A stretch of DNA of 60,943 nucleotides, filler included, from Sphacelaria rigidula (Eukaryota), in the NCBI GenBank assembly GCA_964200075.2. It is 6 parts of 6 records of this genome, joined end to end, with 100 filler letters (N's around TTAATTAATTAA, not from the genome) between each part and the next. Parts side by side here need not be neighbours in the genome. Positions count along the whole stretch, not along the records: positions 20,349 to 30,422 come from CAXNAA020007201.1; 5 more parts are not named here. One strand, given 5' to 3'. The notes below the pieces were generated by a model. It had not been told where the DNA came from, searched no databases, and saw nothing but the letters and a program-made list of their open reading frames with translations. This document shows, in pieces, positions 4,621 to 60,943 of this stretch (position 1 is its first letter; each line of letters opens with the position of its first letter). The position numbers and the translations under genes are program-made.

Positions 4621-5522
4621 AATTCTGCGCAGAACACTTTTGAAATCGTGTTCGTGCTGACTGTAGAAATATTTTGTCCACGGTTGGGTTCATTTCCATA
4701 TATAATGCAGAGTCTGGTACATTGCCACTTTTAATGTAACGGAGGGCCTGGTACATTTCCACATGTAAATGTATGTGATGTTACTCAGTGATGCCGTGAA
4801 AAAACTCCGCCACATCTGCGCGGACTGCAGGTGAGGCAATCGCCGAAATATTCACCTGCAAACTCTGCTCCAGTGCACTGTGAGTTGATATCGCTAGAAG
4901 GACACTACTATAACCACCTTGCCGGCTGCCAGACTGTCAGAACGTATGATCCGCTAGCATTGCTACTGTCTGTACGGGGATGTTGCCCCTTTGTCGGATA
5001 CGTTTTGGAGCATGATAATAGATGTAGATAATCCTTGTACATGGGCACCAAACGCTGAGATTCTTACTCAAGACTTCGATTTGGGGGATGATACTAGGTG
5101 GGCAGGAGCAACTGCTGCGTGTCCAGGTGCCCCTTGGAGCAAGATGTGTTTGGTTTCTGTTGGACAAAGTTATCCCCAAAACCGAAATCGATAGGATTTT
5201 TAGAGTGGAAACATCTCGGAAAACAAATGTCGCAAGAATCGAGTCGCAAAACTCCTGTCGCAAAACTCCTGTCGCAAAAAACGGAGTCGCAAAAACACGG
5301 TTCGTCGAATTTTCACCCGCAGCAGAAACCAAATACACTTCGTGAAACTGAAATTGGAACTGATGATACGCATGAAAGACCCAGGGAGCCTTCTTACAGT
5401 TTCCCCTACATCTGTCGTAGAAAAACTCAGATCGCCCTCGAACTTGACAGTTCCGTAGGTATTGATGCGCCAAATAGAATGATTGTATTGACAATATTTC
5501 AAACTTCCTACGTTCTGTACCG

Positions 5523-10074: not shown

Positions 10075-10174
10075 NNNNNNNNNNNNNNNNNNNNNNNNNN
10101 NNNNNNNNNNNNNNNNNNTTAATTAATTAANNNNNNNNNNNNNNNNNNNNNNNNNNNNNNNNNNNNNNNNNNNN
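10075..10174. other. Artificial spacer N44-TTAATTAATTAA-N44
   Basis: 44 N, a six-frame stop 12-mer, then 44 N; recurs every 10,174 bp. Confidence 0.98.
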
Positions 10175-11304: not shown

Positions 11305-11566
11305 GAGTCATCCTACGACAGGGGGGGGGGGGGGGGGGGGTTTTGTTTGCAAGAAAAAAGAGGCTCAAAAAGGTGTTAGGCGACCTCCCCCCCCCGCGGG
11401 GGCGTTGTTTCTGTTCAAAGCGGTGTCGATCGGTATGGATGAGTGTTACGTATATATAACAAGCTCATTCGGGCAACCGTTGCTGCTTTCAACGACGATT
11501 TGACTTGAAATTTCGCGCAAGAAGTGGCCCAAAATACCCCCCCCCCCGCCTATCGTAGGATGACTC
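11305..11566. mobile_element. MITE with GAG...CTC termini (Sola-like)
   Basis: TIRs GAGTCATCCTACGA(C/T)AGG followed by G/C runs; flanks TCTT/TCAT. Confidence 0.8.
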
Positions 11567-15151: not shown

Positions 15152-15229
15152 TCTGGCGCATGCGGTTTCGCCTTGGTTTTTGTTGATTGTCAAGCTCGTT
15201 CGTTTGTCTTGAACTCGCTTTGAGGGTGT

Positions 15230-15483
15230 TGTAGCCAAATGATACCAAGCCGTAAGGTTTCGGTATAATCGCATGCATGATTGGAGCAGTGGCAGGGGAC
15301 AGGGGATCCTGGATTGATGGCCCTCATCTGTGTGGCCCCTTGCTGTCTGGCTCGTGATCTGTTGAGGATCACTGCGAGATAATAACAAGTTAGAAGAAAG
15401 GACTTGTCGAGCACGAGGCCAGTGATACTGGAGGGGTCCCTCGTTGAACGTCCCGTTGTCCAGATCGTCTGGCAGAGGCTACA
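15230..15483 (+). repeat. 3' LTR of family B
   Basis: Direct repeat of 10996-11249, preceded by a weak purine tract GAGGGTG. Confidence 0.95.
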
Positions 15484-17803: not shown

Positions 17804-17890
17804 TCACAAGGTCACAAGGTCACAAGGTCACAAGGTCACAAGGTCACAAGGTCACAAGGTCACAAGGTCACAAGGTCACAAGGTCACAAG
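17804..17890 (+). repeat. (TCACAAGG)~11 tandem repeat
   Basis: Perfect 8-bp period. Confidence 0.97.
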
Positions 17891-18584
17891 ACAGGCGTAC
17901 CCGAGGTGGAAGAAAGCGAAAATGAAAGACTCCCTGTGCAGGAACCTCGAGAGATGGCGGATATTAAAAAATTAAGAGAGGAAATGAACATAGTAGGACA
18001 ACCAGAGGTTGCCGCATCTCTTCGGCTACTGCACCACACCCACACACATACACACACCTTGCCCCCCCCTCCCCCCCCCCGTCTTTTATTTGCCCTTCTC
18101 ATGGGGCATTTCCAGACATTGGCCGAAACTCACTACAAAAACGGTGTGAAAGTCTTGACAAGCCGTGGCGTTAACTGCAGGAGTGATGCATGATCCAACG
18201 CACACACAAAACTGGTTCGGCGAACTGATCTCATCCTACATTCCTCTTGACGGGGTGCGGCGCCGTCCCAAGGATACCGTACTGCGAAAATCAGTTTGCC
18301 TATCTTGTGTGTTTTTTATCACCACACTGGTTCGATCTTCCTGACTGGCGGTCAACTCATACCAGCATCTCGGAAACAGTGCACATCACTGCTCCGAGTT
18401 CGGGAACATACTTCCAACACGTGAACCAGCACCATTTCCACGAGAACGACTACGTCTGGCAGCCTCATCACTTGGAGGCAGAGACACCAATCCACCAACC
18501 CCTACCCTTGCCCCTGCCCGCCCCATGCATGGAAGAAGCGTAATGAGCGCCTAAGTATTGGAGGTGTCTTTATTAGGAGAAGGG

Positions 18585-18654
18585 GCGGCGCTCCGTCTCG
18601 GAAGGGATGCTTGGTCAATGCTCAAACAACCAAGGCGAGCAACCAATGAATACG
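18585..18654 (+). mobile_element. Poly-C-adjacent retroposon 3' end, variant A
   Basis: GCGCTCCGTCTCGGAAGGGATGC...AATGAATACG followed by CCCCCC. Confidence 0.7.
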
Positions 18655-19004
18655 CCCCCCTTCCCCACCGAATTTTGGACTTTCGGGAAAATATGCCAAC
18701 CCCTGGAATAAACTGAAGAGACGGGGGGAAGAAGGAAATGATCTTAAATCGGTCTCCGAGCAAAAAAAACGATAAGCTCGAGCCGCCTGCTTCATGCAAG
18801 GGAGTCGTCAACACGGCCTATGGCTATTCTACGGGAAAACGGTGACAATAATCGAAATTGCGCACACACAGCGCAAACCTCACAAGAACCCAGATATGAC
18901 GGTCTCCCCAACCCGTCTTCCCAAATCCGTGGCTGGAAAAACACTTTACTTGGTTGTGGTGTCAGCAAACATATTCGGATCTTTCGGAGGTTGACAGTCC
19001 CGAG

Positions 19005-20248: not shown

Positions 20249-20348
20249 NNNNNNNNNNNNNNNNNNNNNNNNNNNNNNNNNNNNNNNNNNNNTTAATTAA
20301 TTAANNNNNNNNNNNNNNNNNNNNNNNNNNNNNNNNNNNNNNNNNNNN
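20249..20348. other. Artificial spacer N44-TTAATTAATTAA-N44
   Basis: Identical to the other spacers. Confidence 0.98.
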
Positions 20349-20385
20349 GGTCTGATGACTATGGCATGCATGATCATGAGTACAT
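20349..20385 (+). mobile_element. Poly-C-adjacent retroposon 3' end, variant B (cut by spacer)
   Basis: ATGACTATGGCATGCATGATCATGAGTACAT followed by CCCCCC. Confidence 0.7.
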
Positions 20386-20758
20386 CCCCCCTCCTCGAAG
20401 TCTCAAGTTTTCGATCTTGGGGCCCATGTATCCAGATATTTTCTCCCGACCAACATGCCCTTGGACAAACCTACGAAAAGCACTGCAGTCTGACACCATG
20501 CTGCACTTCTGCACGCATCTGTCGGGGAAAACAGCACACAAACTGTCCTGATCCTGGTAATAGCCCATTGCGCCAGAGTAGGTCATTCGGATAGCAACGT
20601 CACTTTTGAAGCGAAGACGATGCCGGTTGAACAGATGGCTAACCGTGACGATCAAGAAAGGGTCACGGAGAGCTGGGCTGCCCTCCGTTAACGAAAAAGG
20701 CAAAAATGTGGCATATCCGCCTTCTGTTGCCGCGCATATTCACGCGTCTCTTCGTCAG

Positions 20759-23700
20759 GACTGTCTTTGGGCTAGAGACTGATCGAGAAACATCTTCGCC
20801 GTCAAACGGCCCTGTCCTTGGACAAGATCAAGAGAATTGGACGATGTCAAACCTGACTTCCATATGCCGCACGGACATATCTAAGTGCTTTCGATTCACG
20901 GGGTTTTCACTCAACACCGAAATGTCCCAGCGAGGCCGCCCAGAAGGGTCTGCGGGGTGCCCGAATGTTGCGGCTTCCGTCGTTGGAGGGGATCGAGTCC
21001 TCGCCGTGTTGAAGACTTTGGGTACAGTTGTGTCAAGCATTCATGTTCCAGGAGGATCTAGACTTTTCGGAGGGGGAATTTCGGACGATCAACGTCGGAG
21101 TCTGTTCCGCGATGTGCTTGAATTTCTACAGAACATTTTCGCTGGGATTGCAGTGGAGAAGGAGCGACGAAACGAGAAGGAAGGCGGGCGGTGCGCTGCA
21201 GAAATACACAACACAAAACAAACCGATTGTGCGGATACGGTATGGGTGAGATTTTCAGATGTTGCAGACCTGCAAACGATGTGATCGCACGTATCACAAA
21301 GGGGACGGGTTGAGTTCTCAGTGAAAACAGCTGAATTTGATTGCGGACCCTTGAAGAATATCTTTCGTGGCGTCACTCCCTCCTCCACGATATACAGGCG
21401 CCGCCCACCATTAGTTCCGTCACTTCAACCTCGGACCCCTAGTTGAACATAAAACGAACAGACGTTTCGAAATGGTGGGAACTTTAGTTATTTGGATGGG
21501 GAGACACCGCCCACATCAAAGTGTGTTGTAACTCGTACGCCGCGCGTCATCGCTTTTCGTGCCTAAGCCATGGTAGGCAGAATATGAAGTTTTACTGTCC
21601 CAGTAAACCAAAGCACCGTCGGTGATCGCCCCAGTTGAACATGTAGCGTCAGTACATACAGCAGAAGAATGAATGGACACAAAAACGCGTGCACTTCCCT
21701 CCCTGAACCGTGAGGAAAATGCTTCTGCACGCCCGACGTGCCCCAACGTTACCTTTTGCGACACTTCTGCCGAGCGCCCATATTCTTCTACCGCCCCATA
21801 ACTTCGTACAGTTTCAATCTTTCCCCTTCCTCAGGACGAGCGGTGGTCCGAAGGACTCAAGCCGTCTCTCTCTCTCGGTACACGGCTTGCATGTTGGTAC
21901 CGTAGACTGAAGTATGACTAGCACTCCCGCACCGTGTCGACCTTTGTCAAACCAATTACTTTAGCTGCACACGCTCTCACGTTTTGAACGAGAGAAATTA
22001 CACACTATGCAGACTAGAGTCCAAGTGCGTCTACCTTGAATGAACGGGGCATTTTTTCGACCTAATAGTTTCGGATTTTGTATCAGACCGCCGGGGCGCG
22101 GCGTCTGCTTCAACAAAGAATCATTCTACAACAAGTTGCTGAGGTGTCAGCGGCCAATATTGTAGAACAGAAAACACTGGCGTCCGAAAAGGAGAATGCC
22201 GCCAGGTCAAATTTGAATGCCTTGATCACTGATTTTCTGAACTTCTGTTTCTTATCATGCGTTATAGGATCAAGCGTGCGGTCTTCAAAGAGGCCTCATT
22301 CCTTGGGTACATACTGTTTTTGGAATCAAGTAATTAAAATCCGGTGTGGGTACCACTGCATGGAAAGAAAAGTTCCCACCAGTATCGGTCGAGGATATCC
22401 AATTTTTCACACTGGTGAGAGACACCACTGGAAAAATCGTACGCTCGAATGAACAGAGGATCCCGGGTTCAAATCCCGGCTCCCGCCAACGAAGAAAAGA
22501 AGTGCCCCCTGAAGTTAAGTGGGCATAAAAAAATCGAAAAAATGGTGGGGGACCAGACAACTGGTGGGAGATCTTTGAGTAAAAGTCCAGTCTCACGGGA
22601 CAGTCTTCTGTGGAGATTGTTGGCTTGACAACCCAACACACGTAGAAGATTTTTGAAGAAATGTGTAAGTCCTCACCACGAGCCGACGAAAATGGTTGAC
22701 CCTACAAACCTCTTATCTGTTAAATAACGTTTGAAGAGGTCCATTCAGGGGGGCGTACTCATTTGTTGCTTGCCTTAGTCATTTGACCATTGACCACGCA
22801 TCCCTTTCGAGACGGAGCACCATCCATTCAGGGGGGGGGGGGGTGATGTGGGTACCACCACATGGAAGGGAAAAATCCCCATAAGCGTCGGTCGAAGAAG
22901 GGCCTTTTCACACCAGCTTTGATTTGCCTATTTACCGGCAGCTGTCTGGGCCTGTGCGTGCCTTCATAACTTAGAATCAAATGATGACGGACCGTGCTCA
23001 TTTGTGTTTCCTCAGGACATAGTTATCGCGGGTCTAACAGACACTTGGTCCGATATCCGCAGGATGAGCCAAGATCACGCGAGAAAACTCGCCGTGAAGC
23101 TCGGGCAGCTCAATGTGAGACATTTCCCACGTAACGGTATTTGCGCAGGCTCTATTCCGTCAAGGGTTTGCCATGGTAACAGCGCTTTGGAGTTGCTGTC
23201 AGAGTTTGCTCATGCCGAACAAATGCTGGCACCACCTACTGACGGTGCCCGACGTACAATATTTGGGAGGAGCATAGGGCGTATTTTCTGCATATCTAAC
23301 GAGCTTCTTCTGCAGCCGAGTGTAGGGTTGTGATATGATAGGATATATGCGTTTAGCGTTAGTCGCCGTTGTTCTTCCAAAATAACACATGTTCCGTACA
23401 GGTACCCTTGCCGTCGTCAGAGGTTCCTCGACCTATATGATCAAAATCCTGCACTTTAGACGCATCGTACCATGCTACATGTTTCCTGAAAAAATGTGCT
23501 GGTGAATCGACTGCTTTTCATTGACACAGGCGCGCGTCCTCTACATTCGTGTCGCTAGGGGTACTGCCGCCAACTCGAGTTCGGGCGCAGAAGTTCCGAG
23601 TCGATGGCAGAACATCCACGGTTGCTTGCTAGGCATGCGCGCGGCTCTAGAAGGTGCTGCATCTTCAACACCATGCTGCCACTGCGTACGTCTCATTAAT

Positions 23701-26700
23701 GGAGGCACACCCGCTACTCCTCAAACGGTGGCAAGGGCCCAAGAGAATGATCGCGAGCTACGGCGTGAAAAGTGTGATTGTCGAACAATACTTTCTATGT
23801 TCGCTGCAGATGTTGTTTGGGCATTTGAAGATCGGTCAAAAGAGAAAGATCGGGGAGCACATGCCGAAAAACATGAAAAGGGTGAGCATAAGCATGGGAT
23901 ACACAGGAACGCTAGTGCGCCACATCGGGTTGAGGCGAAAGAGCAGAGGGCAATCACAAAAGCGACACGGGATCAAGACTCGCCAGACACAACATGCCCA
24001 TCTCCACGTAGAACTGACATTCTTCCCCTGCCGCACGAGATACCAGCCGTTTCTGAGCAGCTTCTCCGTTTGCCGCCTCCTCCACCGCAACCGCACATGC
24101 TCGAGGCGGCGGAACCTAGCGCACCCCGTCGGGTGTTCGATAGCCTAGCTCATCGACAGCTCGCGGTGCGAAATGCCGCGGCAGCAGTGGTGCAAACCCT
24201 AGCGTCTGTGCTGGGCCCACAAACGGGGCTATTGCTGCATGAGTGGACGATTGGTGAGCTCGAAAGCGTCGACGCCTTGTCGATGGAACGCAAGATGCGC
24301 GCTAAAGCGGCTGGGCTGCTGAGTGTTCTAGGTAGACTGGTGCGTTTGGTTCCGAGACGAAGCATTGGTGATTCCTGGGATCGAGTTTTCATCACGCTGA
24401 GGTATGTTTCCTTACGTCCAAAACCATAGAAAGAAGTGAGCGGGCTTACAGTATATATGTCTCACAGACGGTTGGCAGGCTAGCGTGCCGTAGTAGTAAA
24501 CAGTCACATCAAAAACATTTTCTTACCAGACAGCCACTCAGCAGCCAGCTACATAGATCGGCCACCTCCAAGCTGTGCCCTCGAGGTGCGAGGTGTTGAA
24601 GGCAAATGAGTGTGAAACGGACGACGTACGGGCAATCGCTGACGCCATTTCTCGCGCATAACACCTCACCTTTGACCACGGGAATACGGTGGGCAACTAT
24701 CAGAAAACGTTCGAAACCCTCGTTTGTGGGCATCATTTGTACACCAAGAACCACCATGCCGACATGGAGTATGGTCAAGAAGTCAAGTTGTACCTATCCG
24801 CATCGTGAGGGATAATGGCCACGGCCCGAACATGCTTGACGGCAGTGGATTGAGATCGGAGCCGCCAACGACAGAAACAAACGCAGCACAAACTCTTACT
24901 TTGTTTTTTCCTGCCACTTGGATTCCACCCCTCCGCTGGATGCAACCAATCCTACTTCAGACCCTATATGTGCCATCCAGCGTCTTCAGTTCGTCAGGCC
25001 GCGACAGCAGTTCTGCAGAAAATCGCGATAGTGCCAACGGCTCCTTCGCTTGGTGAGCCAGCGTGTGCCGCTGGAACTCCGAGAACATTATCCGCTAGCG
25101 AAATTCCCCCGGAATATAGCAACAACATTGTGTCTGTGCGTGTTGTACTGGGAACCTTGAGCGTCGCGTGGGATGAATCTGGCAATTCGGGCAGTCAGAA
25201 CAATACAATGAGGAACGGTGGTGTCGAGGGCATGTCATGCGGTGTTGCGGACGTCACATCTTGGCTGCGTAGCATCGCGGACGCCAATGCTTCGTGCTCA
25301 GTATCGTCGTCTCCCCGGAGGGGAGGAGGCAGGAGCGAGAATAGCACTGGTGATGAGGACCCTGCGTCAGAGAGTGCCGTACATTCAACAGAAGGGCCCG
25401 CGGCAGATCTACGAACAGGTTGTACGCCTCAGGCGAGACCGTGGACCTTTCGGGAAAGTGTTCTCATGGCTTACGAAGGCGTGCTAAAACACCTCACTCT
25501 AAGTAAAAACGAGCATATTCCCTCTTTGTATTCCTCGGGAGGAGAAGGGTTCACGCTCTCAGTAGAAGCAACGCCGACTTCTACGGCTGAAACACGGGAG
25601 ATTCACACTGCTGACTGCTGGTCAACAGAGGTTGTCGATACTGCTCCGACAATATGCGATATCTTGAAGACAGTGATCCGTCATGCGGAATGGGCACTAT
25701 TCGAAGCAGAGGTGGGGCGGGTGGCGGTCGTTGTGCACGTATAAGGCTACTGTAGATATTTTGTCATGCTTGTCAAATTGATCGTGCGTTGAGTAACGGC
25801 GAAAACGAAATGTCAATGCTGAGGGAAATGCGCTCGTCTCGGGCGTTAATGTTCCCACGAGTCTTGTTTTTGTGTCATTGCCTGGTTAGTTGGTATAATA
25901 TGTAGTGGGGGAGAACAAATTAGAGTGCACACAGGCACTGGCAAAATGAGCCGCGTAACACTCCCTAGAAGGAATGCAGGAGGGGGAAGAACTAAATCTA
26001 TGCCACCGACGGATTAATTTGAACCTTTCAAGTTGCCTTGTTGCTCGACTCAGGTGCGAAGGGACCTGGTTAGTGCTGCCAAGATTCCCATGAGTCATGA
26101 CTTCACAAACGGCGCGATAGAGCTCCGGCGCGCAGGTTCTCAAATTCTCCCGACTTTAGCAAGGGTGCTAGTCTGGTGGGATCGGAACGCACTACTAAAG
26201 TGAGTAAATAGCCAGGATTAGGGTGCCGTCGCTGGATTGTTTCCGCTTCTTCACGGTGGTACCCCGTTGTGCGCTTCATGTAAGTAACTTTCGAGGGCAG
26301 GTCGAGTAGAGTATACTCAATTGCGGAATATTTTGAAAAACGTACTTGTAGTACACAAATTGAGGGTAGGGTATTAGGGATCTCTTTCCAGTTATTGTTT
26401 GGGTACGACTTCTAACACTTTACCCTAATTTGAGTACCTCAAGTACGCCTTTCAAAATACCCCGCAATGGAGTATACTCTACTCGACCTGCCCTTGGTAA
26501 CTTTATCTCGCAAATATGGAAACCCAAGTCTTGCACCGAGCTATGCAATGGTGTCTACCCTGGGGGAATCTATTCGACATTTTTTACTTCTTTTGGTCTG
26601 ATCCCAACGTTCATCTTCCCATGCTTGCTTGCTTGTATGGGAGTAGTGGTAATATTCAGTCATCATCTGGGACAGCGTGAAAAATATCACCTGTTGAACA

Positions 26701-29432: not shown

Positions 29433-29989
29433 CAAGGTTGTGTTCTGTAGGGTGCGGTTTTCCGTATACTCGGGGTATTTGCCCGGGTATTTACCGTACC
29501 CGACACTTTCATACCGGTATGCGACAGTTCTGTAAAGTCTGTAACACTTTCATACCCTTATCCGATAGTTCTGTGAGTTCTGTAAGCCTCCCGTACTGTT
29601 ACCGGGGGCACGGGTACGCTCTTGACCAGATACCCGGTTGCGGGTACGGTTTTCTGTGCAACCTTCATACCCTACTCGACATTTTCTGTGAGTTTTGTAC
29701 GCCTCTCATACCCTTGTCTGGCAGTTCTGTGAGTTCTGTACATAATGTATGCCCGTACCCGGAGCGCGGTTATGCTCTTGAAAAAATACCCGATTGCCGG
29801 TACAGTTTTCTGTAGGCCTCCCGTACCGCATCCGACAAGTTCTGTAATTTCTGTAAGAATTCCAAACCTGTACCCGACAGTTGTGGAATTTCTGTAACAC
29901 TTTCATACCGGGACCCGATGTTTCTGTAAGTTCTGCGAGGAATCCCATCACCTGGAGAGTATACCCGTACCCTACAGAACACAAGCTTG
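29433..29989. mobile_element. hAT-like non-autonomous element (~560 bp)
   Basis: TIRs CAAG(G/C)TTGTGTTCTGTAGGGT; many internal TTCTGT(A/G)AG and TACCCG motifs; second copy at 31613-32152. Confidence 0.8.
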
Positions 29990-30162
29990 CATAAATTTGT
30001 TCAGAATTTAATGAGAAACGATGATTTGTGCAACACGCGCGCGAATCGGTGCCAAATCGCGCGTTGCGCAGTGGCACAGGCCATATTTCGAAGGAGACGC
30101 CGTAGCTGCTCATCAACTGAGGACGTCGTTTATTCCCCAGGCCGCGAGGGTAGGTCATCTGG

Positions 30163-30362
30163 TCATGTGTGTGTTGTCATCCCATCTATTCTGGACAACA
30201 GTCTACGCCTTTCAGTATATGTGGGCGCACCAGCCGGGGTCACACAGGAGTAAGGCCAACGCAGGATTTTTTTTCTTTTTTCTTTGTTTTAATTCTCTAC
30301 TTTCCTCCTGCGATGCTTGTCTTTTTATTTTTCAATCGCGAGAGGATTTCAGTAGTTCCTTT
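30163..30362 (-). mobile_element. SINE family 1, 3' half
   Basis: Aligns with 31150-31350 and with the reverse complement of 59890-60085. Confidence 0.75.
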
Positions 30363-30422
30363 TAACAGCCAATCATCTATATTGAGGATGGTGCTATTGA
30401 TTGAGGATGAGAACCCGGAGGA

Positions 30423-30522
30423 NNNNNNNNNNNNNNNNNNNNNNNNNNNNNNNNNNNNNNNNNNNNTTAATTAATTAANNNNNNNNNNNNNNNNNNNNNN
30501 NNNNNNNNNNNNNNNNNNNNNN
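30423..30522. other. Artificial spacer N44-TTAATTAATTAA-N44
   Basis: Identical to the other spacers. Confidence 0.98.
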
Positions 30523-30827
30523 CAGAAGAAATCGTGAATTTGGTGATTTTGAGTCGTGATGATTTGTCCTAACCGTGGATTATTTGTCTTAACCGTCAAA
30601 GTGTCTGGTTTAAGGAGGTAAAATCTATATGGAAATCAAAATGACAAAAGCCGAACAGAGCGAACTGGTGGGAACTCCCAGACTTGGGGTCGTTTTTGTC
30701 AATGTCGCCCATAAGAGGCGCTTCATGCAGTCTGAAGCCAGCTATCATGCGATATACGACCATCTTGTTCGTGACAATTTTGGGGCTGGTCTGGGGGGGG
30801 GGGCGGGGGGCTATCGCAGCATCACTC
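30523..30827. mobile_element. Sola-like MITE, partial (left end not seen, at block edge)
   Basis: Right end GGGGGCTATCGCAGCATCACTC; body homologous to 39385-39630. Confidence 0.6.
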
Positions 30828-31140
30828 AGAAGCAAAAGTATGAAATGGTAAGAGAGAGGAAGCAAGGGGGAGAAGAAAATTGAACACAAAGAACTGGCTC
30901 TGATGAAAATGACGGATCATGACCAAAAATAATATAAGGAATCAAAACACACGGGGAACAGGAGATGGGGTGTCAATGCAGTATGTACCCTTTCACACAC
31001 CGCAAGGCGGGGTGGGTCGTCTGGGCCTTGCATTCATGTTCATGGTGAAAATAGTGCCGACTGACGACCCCAACCTATTTAGCGGTCGAAGGCGGTCGAA
31101 AGATGAAGAATGCTGCTGCATGGGCTTTGGCGTGAGACCC

Positions 31141-31508
31141 AGTGTGTTGTGTGTGTTTGTGTTGTCGTCCTATTCATGCTGGACGCCGGTCTACACCTTA
31201 CGGTATATGTGGGCGCGCCAGCCAGGGTCACACAGGAAGAAGGGCAACACTGGAGCTTTTTATTTTTTATTTGTTTCAAGTACCTCACCTACCTTCTGCG
31301 GTGCGTGCCTTTGTTTTTTATCGCGAGAGGGGTTCGTCAGCCCCTTTCCCTCGTCGAGCGTTGAGTCGAATTTCGTGTACCCACGACATAGTCGCTCTCC
31401 GCTGTTGGACATGGTGTGAGAAAAAATCCCAGATCGCTCCGAGATATGAACCCACGACCCAACCGTCAGGAGGCCTCGAGGTTACCAACTGACCCACCGG
31501 GGCGGCCA
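31141..31508 (-). mobile_element. tRNA-derived SINE family 1, full length
   Basis: Head GCCCCGGTGGGTCAGTTGG (A box)...GGTTCATATC (degenerate B box); body matches 59732-60085; CA-rich tail. Confidence 0.85.
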
Positions 31509-31612
31509 CCCGGGATCACAAAAAACACTGCGGTATGAAGGAGTAGTCAGGGGCGACTGCGGAAAGCGTACGCTGCACGACGGTGAACGAATAAAAACAC
31601 GACAGATATGTT

Positions 31613-32152
31613 CAAGGTTCTGTTCTGTAGGGTACGGTTTTCTGTATACCCGGGGTATTTACCGTACCCGACACGTTCATTCCGGTACCCGACAGTTCTG
31701 TAAACTCTGTACGACTTTCATACCCTTACCCCATAGTTCTGTGAGTTCTGTAAGCCTCCCGTACCTTTACCGGGGGCACGGGTATGCTCTTGGTAATATA
31801 CCCGGTTGCGGGTAACGTTTTCTGTGCGGTCTCCATACCCTGCACGACAGTTTCTGTGAGTCTTGTACGCCTCTCATACCTTTATCCGACGGTTCTGTGA
31901 GTTCTGTACATGATGTATGCCCGCACCCAGAGCGCGGGTATGCCCTTAGAGAAATACCCGATTGCCGGTACGGTTTTTCTGTAAGCCTCCCATACCGTAC
32001 GCGACAAGTTCTGTCATTTCTGTAAGACTTTCAAACCGATACTCGAATGTAATTTCTGTGAGACTGTCATACCGGTGCCCGATATTTCTGTAAGTTATGT
32101 AGGGAATTCCATACCCTACAGAGCATACCTGTACCCTACACAACACAACATA
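31613..32152. mobile_element. hAT-like non-autonomous element, copy 2
   Basis: Colinear with 29433-29989; flanks GATATGTT/TCTATGTT. Confidence 0.8.
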
Positions 32153-32495: not shown

Positions 32496-35342
32496 GAGTT
32501 TAGCCGACTGGATGACAACATGGGCGTGGTGGTGTTCTCCATAGACTTCGAGGCCATCTGCAGCAGGAGCCAACTCGTCCGATGGCTGGTAGACTCAGGG
32601 GGACCCGCCGTGAGTTTAATTTTTTTTTTGTCTTTAACATGACATGCGCATGCGTTTTTGTTTTGTTTTTTTCCCTTTGAAGGAAGAAACCTCACCCAAC
32701 ACTTACCCCGCGAAAGGCTTCGTGTGCCGATCGATTTACACGAATGGTCGGCTAGACCGACTCGCGGGAGTCATGTGGGGTAGGCGCCTCTAGCCTTGGG
32801 AAAGCTTTGCTCGAGGCAATTGATTGATTGACTGTCGCACTTTGAACCCTTTTTGAACCCATTGACGATTTTTGTTTTTGTGAATCAACATCATTTTCAG
32901 TAATTTTTTCAAGTCAGACTGATGACTGCCGATTCACAAAAACAGAAACCGTCAAAGGGTTCCCAAAAGGTTAACTGACCCCTCCAGAGATCCAGCCCTG
33001 GTCACATGATGGACGCATGCAAAGCCCACTAAAACCCCCCTGTCAACTTGGCGCGGTGCACTCTCCGCCCTACTCTCATGAGCTCCGGCCCTAGGTGTGT
33101 GCGCGTTTGTGCACGCGCACGTGCCGCACGCGGTAGAAGCCCAAGAGCTGAGATGTATCTCTTCACCGTGCTATGTTTCACGGGGTCTATATCGTATCGA
33201 GTGGGCGATGTGATAACGATATAGCAATCACTCATGTGTTGGTTTTTCACTCGGGTGTGTGTGCAACTGTTCCTTCCTGTCGAGAGCGCTTTTTGACTCG
33301 CCTTGGGAAAAACGTCGGGGGTTGCCTCTGCTTGTTGGCGACAAGAATCGGAGAAAAGCGATGCGGGTCTTCTGTCGGTTGCCGTCTATGCTTGACACGT
33401 ATCTTTTTTCGCGCTGTACACCGATGTGCTCACTGTTTGTTGCCTCGAAATTGCGTGCAGACGCTTCGCAGGTCTAGTGCGGCAATGCTGCGCAGCGGGG
33501 CTAGGCCCGTTGCCGTCACGCCTACACCGGAGGGGTTAGATCTGGTGTGGGAGACATTGACGGAAGACCTCGTGGCCGTGCAGGCAGGGAAGCTGTCCGT
33601 TAACATCATCGAGGACCCCCCCGGCCTGAGGTGAGTGCGTTCGCTCCCGTATCCTAAGCGTAGTTCCGTTATGTCCTCTATAGTCGAGCCACTCGTAAAT
33701 AGTTGAGTGTGTGTGTTGTGGGAAATATTTCTCGTACTACTGTTCGTGCGTACGCACCGGCCAACGGCCTTCACACACACCACAATACGTGTAAGTGATG
33801 CTACGACAGGGGGGGCTTTTTCGGCCATTTATTCCACGAAATCCCGCCCGAAATCGTCGTTAAAAGCAGCAACGATGGTTCGAACGCGTTTGTTACTATT
33901 GATGCACGCTCATGTATACCACGTGACGCCGTTTTCACCCAAATACAAGCGCATCGCGAGTCGTGACGTCGTCCGACACACCCTTTGCCCTGCACGTGCA
34001 CCAACCGCCCCTGCTGCCGCCCTCGCCGCCCGTCTGCCTACCGTTGCATATATATCGTTGTGCGGCTCTCTTGTCGCGGAAGGGTTTCCCGTGTGAAGGG
34101 ACCGGGACAGCCCCAGAGCAAAGCCCTCGCGGGTGAAGAGGAGATCGTGCAGAGCCTGCTTGAGGGCATCAACACCGTGGCCTACCCCAAGGCCTTCGTG
34201 AAGAGGAAACTTCCGAAAGAAGCACGCATTTCCGTGGAGGAAGTTGCACAGGCAATGGAAAAGGCGGCGACGGTAACGGGGGCGTCGCCGCCGGCGGCCA
34301 ACGCAGAAGCCACGAAGTCTTCTTTGCCAGGTGGGAGAAGGATTGAGGATTGTATCGATGCGGCCCCCCAAGCATGTACACTCATGCATGTGGTGGATTC
34401 GGGAGTTGTTTGCTTGCGTATCAGCTGCGTGGGCCGTACATGTTGTGTTTTTCTGGGCTCTCACAGAGGAGGGAGGGTACTCATGGTCTTGCATCCCCTA
34501 GTCATACGCGTCGTGTCTTTGTGGGTTCACAGAGGAGGGGGGGTGCGCATAACCTTGCATGCCCTCGTCGTGCGCGTTGTGTCTTCCTGGTTCACAGAGG
34601 AGGGGTATGTGTTCCTGATGTTGCATGCCCTGGCCATACGACTGTTGACACAGAGGAGGGGGGTGGGGCAGGGGGCAGCTGGGGAGATTGACTGCATGAA
34701 GCGGGGGGTGTTCAACTTAATTTTCTGCCTAGCTTTTCGGCAGACGGAGAAATCACCGTGCTGGTTTATATATACTTCGTTCAATGTGTCTGGATTGGAA
34801 GAACGCGCGCGCTATTTACTTTTGCATCGACTTTTTCTTTCAAGGACAAGGAGCAAGCAAATAGAGCAGTCAGCAAGTACTGCGTACTTAGTGCCGAAGC
34901 GAATACGTTTTCGTCGTCACCTCGCTTCTTTTTTTCCATCCTCCGCCTCTCCTGTGTGTGTTTTTTCTTTCGTCATGACCTCCTTTTCCCAACGACTGAA
35001 CGGAAAAACGTTTTTGGGCGATGATGAGCTCACCGCCGATACCGTGTACGTACTCTTTATGTCGGACCATCTGTCAAGCCTGCTCCTCAGCGGAGTACCC
35101 TCGCACGTTCTCCACCTTCTCGTGACCCTATCTAATCTGTGCCCTTTCACCATATACGGTTGTTGCCCCCTGTTTTTTTTTCACCATTCAACCCCTCCTC
35201 CCCCCCACCGCACTCACCCTCCCCGGCATCGACAGAGCCACAACAGCGCGATACGGAGCCAGCAACAACAACAACGGCAGCGGCCAAGCCACCAAGTAAG
35301 GGGCGAGGGCGGCGGTCTGGCGGCAAGCGCAAGTCCAAGTAG
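32496..35342 (+). CDS. 3' part of an unknown protein gene; exons 32496-32609, 33461-33630, 34083-34330, 35235-35342
   Basis: GT-AG exons splice in frame (EFSRLDDNMG.../TLRRSSAAM...PPGLR/VSRVKGPG.../EPQQRD...KRKSK*). Confidence 0.7.
32847..32970. mobile_element. piggyBac-type MITE
   Basis: Near-palindromic; CCCTTTT...AAAAGG ends flanked by TGAA/TTAA; related copy at 50514-50631. Confidence 0.7.
34460..34670 (+). repeat. Intronic minisatellite, ~65-bp unit, about 3 copies
   Basis: CACAGAGGAGGG recurs at ~34462, 34528, 34593, 34649, with TTGCAT(C/G)CCCT between. Confidence 0.7.
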
Positions 35343-39630: not shown

Positions 39631-40469
39631 TGCGGCGGTAGTTTTTCTATGTCTACAACTCGCAGCGTCAAAATAACCTCCATCTCTCGAGAGATAAAAG
39701 GAACAAGGGATTATCCTTTAGACCGATGTTCACGGCAGGTGATACGAATCCCAAAAATTGGAGTGGTCTGCACCTCAGCATTCCGCAATGTGAGCATAAA
39801 GTGTCACCCGGGTGGTGAGCACTGCCCTCTAATTTGTTGCTCACTTCCATATTGATATTTTCTTCCTGTGTGTCACGGTTGCATGTTGACCGTTGCAGCA
39901 TGGTACTTTGATGGCTACAAAAATATCTCATCAAGGTACATGTGTATATGAACAGTAACTGTTGAATAGCACAAGAAGCACGATGACGCTCTCGACAGGA
40001 TTAGAATGGCTGGAGTGCCCACAATATCACCTACTACCGGCGAACCGAGTCTATCTTCAATTCCCGCTGTATTCCGAGATAGCCCCAAAGATGATCGGAG
40101 CTTACAACAAAATGTAGCGTTGAAAAATGAAAGATGAAGACATGAAACGGCCGTGTTTTATCGCAAACCGACAACCGCGGATGCCATTTCGAGCGAGGGA
40201 GTTTGGTCGTAACCGCCTCATCGTTAGCAATAATTGAGTCTTGCAAGCGGAACCCCCTCGTAGCTCTATGGAGATTTGTGCACCCCGAACGACGGGGACA
40301 ACCGGCAAAACAGTCATGCTGACGTCTCTAAAACACATCATTGACACCAAACGCCTCTCTCTAACGACCACACACCCAATCACCGAGACCTGCAAGATCT
40401 GACCCTGAGATCGCCGGAAATCCTCGAAACAAGGAAAAGGGCGATCTCACTTTAGGTGTCCTGGCCGAT

Positions 40470-40534
40470 ATCCCGTATCGGACGGGATGCGTGGTCAATG
40501 GTCAAACGACCAAGGCAAGCAACAAGTGAGTACG
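40470..40534 (+). mobile_element. Poly-C-adjacent retroposon 3' end, variant A
   Basis: GGGATGCGTGGTCAATGGTCAAACGACCAAGGCAAGCAACAAGTGAGTACG followed by a C-rich tract. Confidence 0.7.
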
Positions 40535-40596
40535 CCCACCACACCCACCCCCACGCCCACCAGCAAAACACGCGCACCCACCGCGCCGCCACTAGC

Positions 40597-40696
40597 NNNN
40601 NNNNNNNNNNNNNNNNNNNNNNNNNNNNNNNNNNNNNNNNTTAATTAATTAANNNNNNNNNNNNNNNNNNNNNNNNNNNNNNNNNNNNNNNNNNNN
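40597..40696. other. Artificial spacer N44-TTAATTAATTAA-N44
   Basis: Identical to the other spacers. Confidence 0.98.
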
Positions 40697-40822
40697 AAAT
40701 GCAGGATAATCGGTAGGCTCCGGGTCGAACAATCTTAGCAGGATGCAGCTCACCCTTCATGCGACTCGCCGAACACACCACGGCGCTTTGTGCTTGGTGG
40801 TTTGAATGCAAGCCTGGTGAGT

Positions 40823-40909
40823 TCGGCGAAAACCCGGCGTGCTCCGTCCCGGCTTTGTAGGGATACGAGGTCAGGCCTTATGACTATGGCATGCATGATC
40901 ATGAGTACA
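40823..40909 (+). mobile_element. Poly-C-adjacent retroposon 3' end, variant B
   Basis: GGCGTGCTCCGTCCCGGCTTTGTAGGGATACG...ATGAGTACA followed by CCCCC. Confidence 0.75.
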
Positions 40910-45200: not shown

Positions 45201-48200
45201 AGTGCTAGATATTGCACCTATCATGGACTGCGTGTATTGTTGTGAGTGTTTAAGATACTACACTACATGCCCACGCGTAAAACCCATCAAGTACCCGACG
45301 AGCAGCTTAACGGGGTAGTCCTCACTCCTTTTAGACGTCGACTGGAATGGTATTATGTTTTCTGTTCCCTCAAATACCAACGGTAGTGCATGGGGTGACC
45401 GTCCTGGGCTTCCAGGGGTGTGGTGATCTTGATCCACTATGTAACATCCGCGAGTGGTCATTCTCCACTACCTCCACTACCTCCATTTTCAACAGCATGT
45501 AACTGTCCGACCCCTACGAGAGACTCACCATCTTGTATCCTCAGCACCATGTGCGTGCTTCACAGCACATCCACAAAGTTAGACTTGACAATCATAGTAC
45601 GAGTCTTCCGTGGGGGGATCCTCTATTTTATGCGTGGATAGGAGTTATGTTCGTTGAAGAGTTAGACTACACTCGTTGAAAGAGCAGGAGAGCGTTCTCG
45701 TCTGGTTGATCGTTCTGTATTTCTCTCCTCTGTTTTCACCACGATTTTACGAGTAATGTTCGATTCGGCTTGCCCGGTGCCGTAATTCTCTCACTCCATG
45801 GAATACTCCCTGTTTGAAGACTGAAAACGTATTACCCGGGTGATCCGTTAGACCGCAGAGCGTTTGCGGATCTTGACTGTACAAGCTTCCAATCATTAAA
45901 ATGATTTCAGGCAAGAGTTCTTGATTAAAATGTACATGGGCTCTCACTAGAGAATGGCTGCAAATGATCCAGAGTGTACGTCATAGATATTATTATATTG
46001 CGGTCTTCTTTTCGAGTCTGGGGGGGGGAGCATCGGAGTGCGCACAGCGGTGACCACTGCAGAGCCAGGTATCTGGGAAGGTTTGGAATCGGTTGTAATG
46101 TGATACGGAGGGAAACACTGCAACCACTTGCTAGGAGATTATGCATCATAGTGTACTGCAGGAAATCGGTGAGAGGTTTTGTTGTTCGCTACTGGAGCAG
46201 GCTGGTTTGAGCCACAATATGTTCTTCCCTGCGACAGCGTGCTCGGCGAAGTTTTCTTTTGATACCATTCCGAGGATGTTTGTCACGATCATGGGTTGTT
46301 GTTGTTGTTGCTGTCGTTGTTGTTGTTGTTGCTGTTGCTGTTGCTGTTGTTGCGAGGTTTTCGGCGTTTCTAGAAGTGAATCGAATGATCATCCTCAGTG
46401 TAGACGGGTACGCGACAGATTTTCGTCTCATTTTGAACCGAAATTCATCGTTTTCGCCTCCGTATCTCTTTGCTTCAATTTGATCGTTCTCAGATGGTTG
46501 GCATACGAAGAGCTTCTTGAAGACGAGATAGCAGTTCTTCGGGACTTCAACGGCCCAGACGCACGGTGAGTATGTCACAAATGCTTCTTATCGTATCACG
46601 TCCTAACCCTGAAGGTAAATGGTGCACATTACCAGTACGTGGCACACCACCCCATGAATAGCACCCCTGGATGATGGGTTTTGGGATAGTTGTTGCACCT
46701 GCCACACAACCGCATATAGGTACGTGGTGTTAAATCTCATCCCTAAACACCACCCCTGGATGTGATTTTTTCGTGTCCCAATAACATACTACCTGGGGGT
46801 GGTGTGCATCGTCATGAACAACGCATGATCCAACAGTAGATACACCAGGAGGCGAGTGCCCACAGCTGATACCCTCGCTTCTCTCTTACAGGATAAGAGG
46901 TATCGTGAACATGAGCGACGAAAAACGGAACAGGGTTTTGGCTGCAAGCTCGTGGGGTGAGGGTCAATCAAGTCACAGTGTGACTTCTCCGTCGAATCTG
47001 ACAAGTTCGCGCGGCATCCAATTTCCTCCAATTTATTGAAACCTAGCGTGAACAAGATATCAATGGTGTTTCTTCAGAACAGCTTTCAATCACCTCGATC
47101 AAAAAGCTGCTGGCAAATCGTCACCCCGCTCTAATACAGGAAAGCGAGTGGGTGGATAGCAGAGTAGCAAAACGAACGAGGTTCCGAACCATCGTGTTGT
47201 GTGTGCGAGGGGAGGGTATTGATGTATCCACGGAGATAGTGCGATGTCCGTGACAAAAGTTTGGTTCATGCATGAGGATCCGGCATCGCTGACGCGCCCC
47301 CCCTTGTCCCTTCGCCTGTTGCCCGAACATCCATCCGCAGAATTATTTTCATGACAACCCACACCGTGACTGACGCCCGATACGGTGGAGATTGGGCCAG
47401 TCTAGTCGACGCGTGGCGCGGAAACCCTGGAAATGAAACTATCCGGGAGGCATGCGAATCTCAGGTATGTATGTACGCGACACGTCATCCGGAAGAGAGA
47501 ATACAACAAAGAAGATGAGGCCTTCTTAACATCCAAGAAGTTTCCACTCTGTCTGTGGCCATGCACGCGTACGTGCTGGACGGTTGCCGAGATGAATAAC
47601 ACTTTGGTGATTGACACAACGCCGAAACCTTGTGACTATGCCGTCCTTTCTCGTCGGGGAGTGTCGATACAATCGCCCGGGAATCTTCCAAGGGCAGGTC
47701 GAGTAAAGTATACTCAAATGCGGGGTATTTTGAAAGAGGTACTTGAGGTACTCAAGTTAGGGTAGAGTGGTGGGAGTCGTACCCCCAAAAATAACTGGAG
47801 AGCGATCCCTGAAACCCTACCCCCAATTCATGCACTTGAAGTACGACTTTCAAAATACCCCGCAATTGAGTATACTCTACTCGACCTACCCTTGTAATCT
47901 TCAACAAATCACGGATTGGAATGCCGAGGAGTTCCGGGAAGCGAGCACAACACTTTCACGTAAACTGGATACCTGTGTAACTATTAAAAATCGCTCCCGA
48001 CGTAGCCATGGGAAAATATCCATCCGAGTCTGATGTGGTACCACTGTCATCGAAAAACCCGAATCGGTCGTGTCCAAGAGCCCTCGCATCGAAATTATGA
48101 CCGAGGTGCAGAGATAAAAGCTAGAGCATTTTCCGCGACCATCGTTTTATTTCTGCGCTTCGTTACCTTCTTTCCCCCTTGCTTTCCAGTTTGCCTCGTC

Positions 48201-49824: not shown

Positions 49825-50195
49825 GTGTGTCCTGAAAACATTGAGGAAAATCGTCTGATGCTTTACAACGCCAGCTTCCTGCCTTTGGCAGAGTTCGCAA
49901 AGTCCCCTCCCTCCTCCCCCAAATTAGTGGATGCAGTATGTGGACCATTCCAAAGCTGTGCAAAAACACGAAACCCCGTAGAGCGCGTACCATCCTCTCG
50001 TAGTCCTCAATATCTTTTACTCAGTTTGTATTGCTGCGGAGAGTTTGGTTTTTAGTGCAGGGGAATCGAAAAAACACGTCTGCGTTGGCATATACATGAA
50101 CTGACCACAAAAGGATTGCTACTTCGCGCGCAAGGGGTTAGAATCTTGCTGACGGCAACACCCCTCCAGTCCCCCCCCCCCCCCCCCCAACAGCC

Positions 50196-50280
50196 TTGTC
50201 CGGCGAGAACCCGGCGTGCTCCGTCCCGGCTTTGTAGGGATGCGAGGTCAATGACTATGGCATGCGTGATCATGAGTGCA
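50196..50280 (+). mobile_element. Poly-C-adjacent retroposon 3' end, variant B, with degenerate TSD
   Basis: Left flank C18-AACAGCC, right flank CCTCCCCCCCTCCCAATACC. Confidence 0.75.
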
Positions 50281-50513
50281 CCTCCCCCCCTCCCAATACC
50301 ATGTGTGAACATTTTTTTGTTGACAAGCAAGAGAGCCTGTCGCACTGCCGATGAAATGGGTATACGGGCAAACCCCTATGGTATATCACCAAACGGTTAC
50401 GTATAATATTTTTCGTGAGCGGTGTGGTTTTCGAGGAAGCCTGGTGTCGAAAATGCTAAATGACGCATGAATCCCTTCGCCTTCCCTCCCACCCCACCCA
50501 CTCCCGAGCTTGA

Positions 50514-50770: not shown

Positions 50771-50870
50771 NNNNNNNNNNNNNNNNNNNNNNNNNNNNNN
50801 NNNNNNNNNNNNNNTTAATTAATTAANNNNNNNNNNNNNNNNNNNNNNNNNNNNNNNNNNNNNNNNNNNN
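50771..50870. other. Artificial spacer N44-TTAATTAATTAA-N44
   Basis: Identical to the other spacers. Confidence 0.98.
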
Positions 50871-55226: not shown

Positions 55227-55580
55227 GTGTGTGGAGGGATGAAGACGGGGGTCGTTTCGAACGGCCGTCTGCAACGCTCCTGCATAGTGCCGGGGGAGCC
55301 GGGCGGACAATCCCAGTCGCGGGCTCTGCGGGCTGTGTTGAAAAGTGTGTGGAGGTTGGAGACGGGGGTCGTTTCGAACGGCCGTCTGTAGCGCTCCTGC
55401 ATAGTGCCGGGAGAGCCGGGCGAATAATCCTAGCCGCGGGCTCTGCGGACTGTGTTGAAACGTGTGTGGAGGTTAGAGACGGGGGTCGATTTGAACGGCC
55501 GTCTGTAATGCTCCTGGGTAATGCCAGGGGAGTTGGGTGAGCAATCTTAGTCACGGACTCCGCGGGCTGTGTTTAAAAAA
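55227..55580 (-). repeat. 117-bp (39-codon) tandem repeat, about 3 copies
   Basis: GACGGGGGTCG at 55244, 55361, 55478; encodes DGRS(K/N)RPPS... units. Confidence 0.9.
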
Positions 55581-60436: not shown

Positions 60437-60681
60437 GAACCTTTCGCAAAACTGCTCAAAAGATGACCCCATTATCTTGACTACAGGGTGGTACCCTCAC
60501 AACCAGACAACTCTGCAGTGGTGTATGAACTGCAGAGTACTACTCTCAACACCAGACGGCGAACCTTTCGGAAAACTGCGCAAAAGATGACCCCATTATC
60601 TTGACTACAGGGTGGTACACTCACAACCAGACAACTCTGCAGTGGTGTATGAACTGCAGAGTACTACTCTCAACACCAGAC
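60437..60681 (+). repeat. 124-bp tandem duplication
   Basis: Near-identical units starting GAACCTTTCG at 60437 and 60561. Confidence 0.92.
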
Positions 60682-60943
60682 AAGGCAGTTATGCCGTGTT
60701 TTCTGGTCGCTCGTGACGGACTGTATTCAAATGCAAAAAATTGTAACCCAGATCTGCACGTTGAGATATGCGGCGGAGTACTACACTCGACCGAAAACAA
60801 CACAGATGTTCTGCAGCATCATCACGAGAAATCACGCGCCGTTCTAATCGCGTTCCGCATGAGAAGGAGAAGAAGTAACAACAGCAGTATCAGCAGCACC
60901 TTTACTGCCAGTAGATGTACGCGGCTGGAGGGGGGGGGGCGTA

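Follow-up and report, generated by a model that had tools for sequence, protein, structure and literature searches.

L1 elements encode an apurinic/apyrimidinic (APE) endonuclease and a reverse transcriptase (RT), insert by target-primed reverse transcription, and leave copies with a fixed 3' end and 5' truncation. Microsatellite-specific Tx1-type elements exist, and RTE-type elements have a short 3' untranslated region (UTR) with a simple-repeat tail. The subject here is a long interspersed element (LINE), copies of which were found in a 60,943-nt stretch of DNA from Sphacelaria rigidula (GenBank assembly GCA_964200075.2), referred to as the window. The window is not continuous genome: it joins six pieces, of which five measure 10,074 nt and the other 10,073 nt. 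With a probability of about 0.75, an insert at 22740-22843 and its relatives are 5'-truncated copies of an autonomous LINE with a single open reading frame (ORF) for APE endonuclease and RT, which carries a C run in the place of poly-A and inserts at C/G runs.

Elements of this kind have been listed before, in the brown alga Ectocarpus, and the present LINE is a further member. In Supplementary file 1 of PMC12477816 (2025) RTEX-1_Ec32 (5,867 bp) is entered as 'single EN-RT ORF; (C)n 3'', EN being the endonuclease, with a 'C-rich' target site duplication (TSD). RTEX-2_Ec32 (5,582 bp) is entered there as '(C)n termini/TSD', also with a 'C-rich' TSD. The same source lists two non-autonomous families, RTEX-N1_Ec32 (607 bp), which 'can be present in tandem' and has its last 60 bp in common with RTEX-1/2, and RTEX-N2_Ec32 (188 bp). 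RTE-X elements are given as the most abundant transposable elements of Ectocarpus, with 7 families and 16,418 copies in 3.41% of the genome. A sequence-only reading of the window had proposed a poly-C-targeting retroposon and knew of no such family in brown algae; the RTEX-1/2_Ec32 entries overturn the second part of that statement. In the main text of PMC12477816 'poly-c', 'c-rich' and 'homopolymer' have 0 occurrences, the matches to 'polyc' are 'Polycomb', and the C tail and its mechanism are not discussed.

Other LINEs have simple-repeat tails, such as (TAA)n in the I element and (TGTAA)n in UnaL2 (PMC3747384), and within Ectocarpus (CAA)n in RTE and (CA)n in CRE (PMC12477816). The poly-A of L1 is as stated in PMC5381506. 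Beyond the table of PMC12477816, no C-tailed LINE and no general statement on RTE-X tails was found in the parts covered of the literature on LINE and RTE-X tails (including PMC5381506, PMC3627910, PMC9942856, PMC3747384, PMC5753468 and bioRxiv 10.1101/2024.02.27.582245).

The insert and its relatives in the window

A perfect 14-bp direct repeat, TCCATTCAGGGGGG, is present at 22740-22753 and 22823-22836 and encloses 69 bp. The copy at 22823-22836 runs into a G13 tract (22831-22843). This arrangement was as the sequence-only reading had described it. Read on the minus strand the order is C13, TGAATGGA, one T, a 68-nt repeat ending in ...AACAAATGAGTACG, C6 and again TGAATGGA. The enclosed copy encodes the last 20 codons of a reading frame, a TGA stop and a final GTACG. 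The C6 of the 22740-22753 TSD is indistinguishable from a short C tail. By own calculation, chance would yield about 0.06 exact 14-mer pairs with a spacing of 40-300 nt per 60 kb. A scan of the window gave 14 such 14-mer pairs outside a (TCACAAGG)n array, including the 22740/22823 pair. Twelve of the other 13 fall in listed repeats of the window and one (43740/43851) was left out of this check.

Related copies were identified by BLAST within the window and by alignment. Eight window copies and two metagenome copies were aligned and all 10 had the same fixed 3' end, ...TGAGTAC(G/A), followed by a C-rich run, as had been claimed for a smaller set. The sequence TGAGTACRCCCC with at most one mismatch occurred 5 times in the window compared to 0.42 expected, and 0 of 100 shuffles reached 5. 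Coordinates of all copies are collected in Table 1, where they are divided into A-type and B-type. The copy at 22754 matched a metagenome contig, L044, with 100% identity over 74 nt. The A copies in the window are 5'-truncated to 125, 68 and ~67 nt and retain the last 39, 21 and 18 aligned residues, respectively, all in frame with the stop. The copy at 18530 has a C-rich 5' flank and no clean TSD was found for it. The TSD of the copy at 40468 may sit beyond the end of its piece at 40596.

The B copies are homologous to the A-type ORF at the protein level and are a related family; no full-length B form was found. In the copy at 40821 the protein-level likeness to the LINE C-terminus goes back to ~40775. 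The homologous frame is stop-free up to the C run in all three B copies and would go on to read the run as proline. The cause is either a stop missing ahead of the tail in the B master or decay of these copies. If the frame is truly open into the C run, a poly-proline end would be added to the protein. The copy at 50200 lies between degenerate TSDs, namely C18 and AACAGCCTTGT at 50171-50199 and a C-rich run and AATACCATGT at 50281-50304, which align over 25 columns with 4 mismatches and 1 gap. The degenerate TSD proposed for this copy is therefore real. A further pair of B-like ends (34469-34590) is an old tandem array.

Some details of the sequence-only reading required correction. The copy placed at 40470 has its 3' end at 40534, and the B copy placed at 50196 starts at 50200. 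Differing 5' extents hold for the A copies. They do not hold for the copy at 20349, whose first base is the first base after the linker at 20249-20348; contigs of sequencing run X5 extend upstream of 20351 at this copy. Because the window is a concatenation, features touching the linkers are cut artificially. The G-run followed by CGTA at the end of the window is present with G10, as had been noted, and is cut by the piece end, so it is not a complete junction; the four nucleotides CGTA prove little on their own about an element copy. Since both are cut at piece ends, the 20349 copy and the end-of-window junction are unusable for 5' truncation or for a full junction.

The parent LINE

Metagenome contigs scanned with a 17-nt core pattern gave 119 loci. 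Of these, 117 were dropped because they share only 17-38 nt with the element, mostly the search pattern itself. The two true loci, L044 and L073, extended the core 859 nt upstream with 89% identity to each other. Their 3' ends had the same ...ATGA(G/C)TACG followed by C8 or C11. L044 contained a 281-aa frame, open at its 5' end, that spanned the whole core and stopped at the TGA within ...AAATGAGTACG. A Pfam search of this 281-aa C-terminal piece gave 0 families.

A protein search limited to longer proteins gave five longer homologues. All five share the same C-terminal peptide and two are full length (1,360 and 1,328 aa). One of the five, an unnamed product of Ectocarpus sp. CCAP 1310/34 (P0006), was 67% identical to the C-terminal 281 aa and had nearly the same end peptide. 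The two full-length homologues, P0004 and P0005, both contained RVT_1 (E 9.8e-31 and 1.7e-32, respectively) and Exo_endo_phos (E 3.4e-12 and 8.1e-15, respectively), from which the endonuclease is predicted. Exo_endo_phos_2 scored above the Pfam curated cut-off of 27.4 bits in P0004 (E 3.3e-07, 30.6 bits) and below it in P0005 (E 1.6e-04, 21.9 bits).

A scan of genome contigs gave a 5,259-nt contig, L121, with an intact 1,382-aa open frame without stops. Along residues 1-1360 this ORF and P0004 were 88% identical. The element ends 5 nt past the stop of the ORF, and C13 comes next. Upstream of the ORF there are at least another 1,067 nt, and the 5' end of the element was not reached. The upstream extension proposed in the sequence-only reading thus arrived at both an RT and an endonuclease, the latter predicted to be APE-type (P0004, P0005 and the L121 ORF).

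The core, as judged from these domain matches, is the last ~20 codons of one large ORF (~1,330-1,380 aa) with a predicted APE endonuclease and RT. It had been put forward as a ~75-nt retroposon core. The non-LTR (LTR, long terminal repeat) nature stands, and the core is the coding part of a LINE of at least 5.1 kb and not a separate small element. What emerges is a predicted APE-type LINE that is autonomous and whose 3' UTR is practically absent. A viral contig scan for the element gave 0 matches, and a search of genome G001 with the 3' 133 nt gave the query locus only. After the ORF was found, CTGATGA in the 20349 copy was no longer read as hammerhead or Penelope-like.

Two features were observed upstream of the L121 ORF. 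At 4745-4800 (minus-strand reading), ~550 nt upstream of the ORF start, there is a divergent antisense copy of the LINE's own 3' end, with ~31 nt of other sequence between it and a C-rich stretch. It could be an older, nested insertion or else belong to the 5' UTR. The outermost upstream stretch (5100-5259) has two to three tandem ~60-nt units, each terminated by a T run, which may be a repeat inside the 5' UTR of the LINE. The bin of L120/L121, labelled uncultured bacterium, holds at least two contigs with eukaryotic LINE ORFs (L120/L121 and L122) and is evidently contaminated with algal DNA.

C tracts, insertion and rival explanations

Contigs of four public runs from two studies (X1, X3, X4 and X5) were aligned to piece 3 only. 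The runs listed as containing the sequence included none of RNA. Summed contig depth in X1 was 1.2 and 4.0 million in the element bins compared to ~70 in flanking single-copy sequence, depth sums not being equal to copy numbers. The element is very abundant, with probably 10^4 copies or more. Past the 3' end at 22747/22748 the loose ends were 11-20 C in 669+95 (X1), 414+105 (X3), 581+105 (X4) and 136 (X5) contigs. Loose ends at 20391 were also C runs (275, 124, 221 and 58 contigs for X1, X3, X4 and X5, respectively). At 22821 contigs continued 5' into the LINE as in L044 (517, 335, 417 and 140, in the same order). Others entered a C run on the 5' side at 22819/22820 (213+146, 196+123, 215+126 and 53). 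Joints going back 68-74 nt were present in all four runs, for example 22819>22748 in 45, 19, 46 and 6 contigs, which indicates head-to-tail copies with an intervening C run. None of the contigs listed for X1, X3, X4 and X5 spans 22773-22798, and no joint skipping 83 bp was among the joints listed.

TSDs were readable in two of the five copies with a readable 5' side, those at 22754 and 50200. The TSD of the 22754 copy is C6 with 8 unique bases, and 7 further C lie upstream of it. The degenerate TSD of the 50200 copy is a C run with 10-11 unique bases and adjoins the C18 run. As an insertion cannot make C upstream of the segment that it duplicates, the target had a long C tract beforehand; the C13 at 22831-22843 is this pre-existing tract. 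The upstream C places the first nick within or at the edge of the G strand of the tract and the second cut 8-11 bp past it. There are 11 C/G runs of at least 10 in the window compared to 0.095 in simulation, most of them not adjoining an element end, and long C/G runs offer ample targets. The suggested geometry, that of L1 but with C instead of A, agrees with the ORF domains, the 5' truncation and the C runs at the 3' end and 5' of copies. Target-primed reverse transcription at C/G runs is well supported, and we infer that oligo-G primes a C-tailed RNA.

Insertion would begin with the endonuclease nicking the G-run strand of a C/G homopolymer tract. The freed 3' oligo-G would pair with the 3'-terminal C run of the element RNA, and reverse transcription would start at ...GTACG. 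The C run of the RNA would probably be copied from the donor's downstream C run by read-through and not added post-transcriptionally. Read-through is the likeliest source of the tail because there is no room for a polyadenylation signal; RT slippage may add to its length. The other strand would be cut ~8-11 bp past the C run to give a TSD of some C and 8-11 unique bases. Synthesis of cDNA would usually end early and leave a 5' truncation. Each insertion would leave a C run on both sides and thereby a new target, which would account for the same-orientation arrays and for part of the C/G-run excess. The full model is tentative and its chance is put somewhat below one half. In it the C homopolymer would be both tail and target, with G/C runs selected by the endonuclease or by priming, the RNA C run derived from the donor flank by read-through, and the coding sequence recognised by the RT in the absence of a 3' UTR. 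Its targets would be self-seeded, with same-orientation arrays as a result, and this would be a main cause of the C/G-run excess in these algal genomes.

Several results weigh against reading the insert and its relatives as truncated copies of a C-targeting LINE. Of the five copies whose 5' side is readable, three lack a clean TSD. The copies at 40468 and 40821 have no C run at the 5' flank, so that targeting is a preference at most, or the age of these two makes them unreadable. In each of the four runs the contigs break within the element, and the pre-insertion C13 is therefore deduced from TSD geometry alone. At homopolymers, length variants and errors push contig counts up, and these are not locus counts; consensus agreement of the loose ends listed was only 0.39-0.65. 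Many contigs have a near-identical 5' end (22819-22821), which one amplified truncated unit, as a tandem array or a short non-autonomous derivative, fits better than random truncation. No conserved RNA structure that the RT could recognise was found at the 3' end (last 100-120 nt). RNAalifold predicted 0 pairs on 10 sequences, and a single-sequence fold of the 3' end had z = -0.13, with 87 of 200 shuffles folding equally well. The last 60 nt were 58/60 identical compared to 47-56/60 in other bins, a figure from two copies only that is too weak to use. The most likely placement of the element, in the RTE-X group, is based on the Ectocarpus homologue and on shared hallmarks and not on consensus alignment or RT phylogeny.

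An RT that adds untemplated G, or slips on a few terminal C, would make the C run anew at each insertion into a target that is otherwise unselected. The varying tail length (5-13 C in assembled copies and longer in contig consensus) and the two of five readable copies without a 5' C run (40468 and 40821) agree with this, but the youngest copy (22754) has 7 extra C upstream of its TSD, beyond the reach of the insertion, and the B copy at 50200 comes directly after a C18 run. C runs also lie 5' of truncated copies in all four runs, in hundreds of contigs per run (53 at 22819/22820 in X5), and the TSDs of Ectocarpus were themselves scored as C-rich by the curators of the table in PMC12477816. Making of the C run at each insertion is unlikely to be the explanation, and slippage may lengthen tails besides targeting.

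It is improbable that most short copies are not independent insertions. In that case unequal crossing-over or replication slippage would have multiplied one truncated unit of ~66-68 nt and its C run into a satellite, or else the copies would be a short non-autonomous element that has a fixed 5' end of its own. The 22754 copy is solitary and its perfect TSD is the mark of an insertion, and the 5' ends of the window copies differ (125, 68 and 67 nt). A satellite would cover arrays, not dispersed copies. On its side are the shared 5' end at 22819-22821 in many contigs, the 68-74-nt go-back joints in all four runs and the degenerate tandem pair at 34469-34590. The Ectocarpus table has RTEX-N1, which 'can be present in tandem', and the 188-bp RTEX-N2 (PMC12477816). 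Repeated insertion of the LINE into resident C tails would also yield same-orientation arrays.

The end of a DNA transposon or miniature inverted-repeat transposable element (MITE), favoured by the short copy length only, or a chance direct repeat has hardly any probability left, as the sequence forms, in frame, the C-terminal part of an RT/APE ORF, the terminal inverted repeats (TIRs) named as a refuting sign in the sequence-only reading are lacking (0 inverted-repeat pairs in 22700-22880), the 14-bp repeat is expected so rarely and the end motif occurs well above its expectation.

Other repeats were observed in the window. A G20 run (11321-11340) and a C11 run (11537-11547) lie on opposite strands ~200 bp apart with the same motif, TCGTAGGATGACTC, 2-6 nt after each. 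This resembles a further family of repeats next to C runs, inverted in arrangement, and part of it recurs at 15229-15483 (family D5). A ~215-bp repeat with internally inverted halves (D14, D16) at 26288-26503 and 47685-47901 is MITE-like and had a summed X1 depth of 6e4-1.2e5. Dense degenerate ~40-nt repeats (TTCTGTAAG...GTACC; D3, D4, D9 and D19) were present at 29433-32148 and 30093-30422. A further very abundant repeat at ~30166-30331 had an X1 bin depth of 1.2 million.

Table 1. Positions of element copies, target site duplications, other repeats and linkers along the window
Feature	Position	Strand	Remarks
TSD copy, element 3' side	22740-22753	-	Element strand: C6 + TGAATGGA
5'-truncated A-type LINE copy	22754-22822	-	68 nt identical to 3' end of longer copies, with extra T at 22822
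TSD copy, element 5' side	22823-22836 (7 more C to 22843)	-	Runs into 13-C run 22831-22843
A-type copy, 125 nt	18530-18654	+	Last 39 codons and stop; then C6 at 18655-18660
A-type copy, ~67 nt	40468-40534	+	Then degenerate C-rich tract to 40565
B-type copy, 5' side cut by linker	20349-20384	+	3' end GAGTACA at 20384, then T + C6 (to 20391)
B-type copy	40821-40909	+	Nucleotide homology to other B copy from 40821; C5 after 40909
B-type copy between degenerate TSDs	50200-50280	+	TSD copies 50171-50199 and 50281-50304
Two degenerate head-to-tail B-like 3' ends	34477-34524, 34543-34590 (span 34469-34590)	-	Each followed by C-rich stretch; family D17
G10 then CGTA	60930-60943	-	Fits C tail and last 4 nt of antisense copy; cut by end of last piece
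Microsatellite (TCACAAGG)n	17804-17891		~11 units
117-bp tandem repeat	55237-55587		3 units
124-bp tandem repeat	60437-60681		2 units
Linker blocks	10075-10174, 20249-20348, 30423-30522, 40597-40696, 50771-50870		100 nt of N with TTAATTAATTAA mid-block

Classification and comparison with known elements

An RT domain and a predicted N-terminal AP-like endonuclease domain are in frame in an ORF that ends in the core found in the window. The 3' end of the copies is fixed, their 5' truncation varies and their TSD is of variable length (readable in two of five), with no LTR or TIR. These are the features of a LINE. Two RTE-X hallmarks were also present. A single EN-RT ORF is represented by the 1,382-aa frame of L121, the 1,067 nt upstream lying outside the check for an ORF1. 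A (C)n 3' end and C-rich TSD were found, as in the table entries of PMC12477816. Protein atlas clusters gave generic EN/RT only and no clade name. A short interspersed element (SINE) was rejected because Rfam at gathering thresholds gave 0 matches in the window and the A copies are in-frame coding ends of the LINE. The L1 clade was rejected because the tail was C in 10 of 10 copies and in L121, and a polyadenylation signal does not fit into the 5 nt between stop and end.

New here are the coding nature of the core, the distance of 5 nt between stop and element end, and TSDs that combine a C run with 8-11 unique bases. Added to these are the evidence that the target had its C tract beforehand, the arrays in one orientation and the model of self-seeded targets. 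The gain is a worked anatomy and a testable mechanism, not the discovery of a new kind of element. A short and extremely abundant repeat is accounted for as the coding tail of an active-looking LINE, and the many long C/G runs of the genome are tied to its way of inserting. For annotation, pieces of 60-130 nt should be masked as RTE-X LINE ends and not as SINEs or unknown repeats. Long C/G runs can adopt unusual DNA structures and disturb assemblies, as in the contigs that break at the element in all four runs. A C-tailed LINE that targets C runs would be a natural contrast to L1 for comparing the nuclease with primer-template pairing in the choice of target.

The present LINE resembles L1 in its predicted APE endonuclease and RT, its fixed 3' end, its 5' truncation and a variable TSD starting in the tail homopolymer. 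It differs from L1 in having C and not A, one ORF and not two, no polyadenylation signal and practically no 3' UTR, and a post-transcriptional origin of the C tail is unlikely. As in the LINEs with simple-repeat tails, the tail repeat would be in the template and pairing or slippage there would set the RT start; 3'-end recognition in such LINEs is described as 'stringent'. Unlike those LINEs, its repeat unit is the single base C.

The tandem short units, including the pair at 34469-34590, are like RTEX-N1/N2_Ec32, for which the table gives a last 60-100 bp in common with an autonomous LINE, C-rich TSDs and tandem occurrence. They are unlike them in that no separate 'head' was found on the short copies of the window, and the A copies are plain coding-end truncations. 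From RTEX-1/2_Ec32 the present LINE differs in host, as judged from element proteins that are only 67-69% identical, the consensus sequences being compared by description only. The parts covered of PMC12477816 do not describe the short stop-to-end distance of 5 nt or the TSD geometry, both of which are given for the present LINE. As entered there, RTEX-1/2_Ec32 share with it a single EN-RT ORF, a (C)n 3' end, C-rich TSDs and a place among the most abundant families of the genome.

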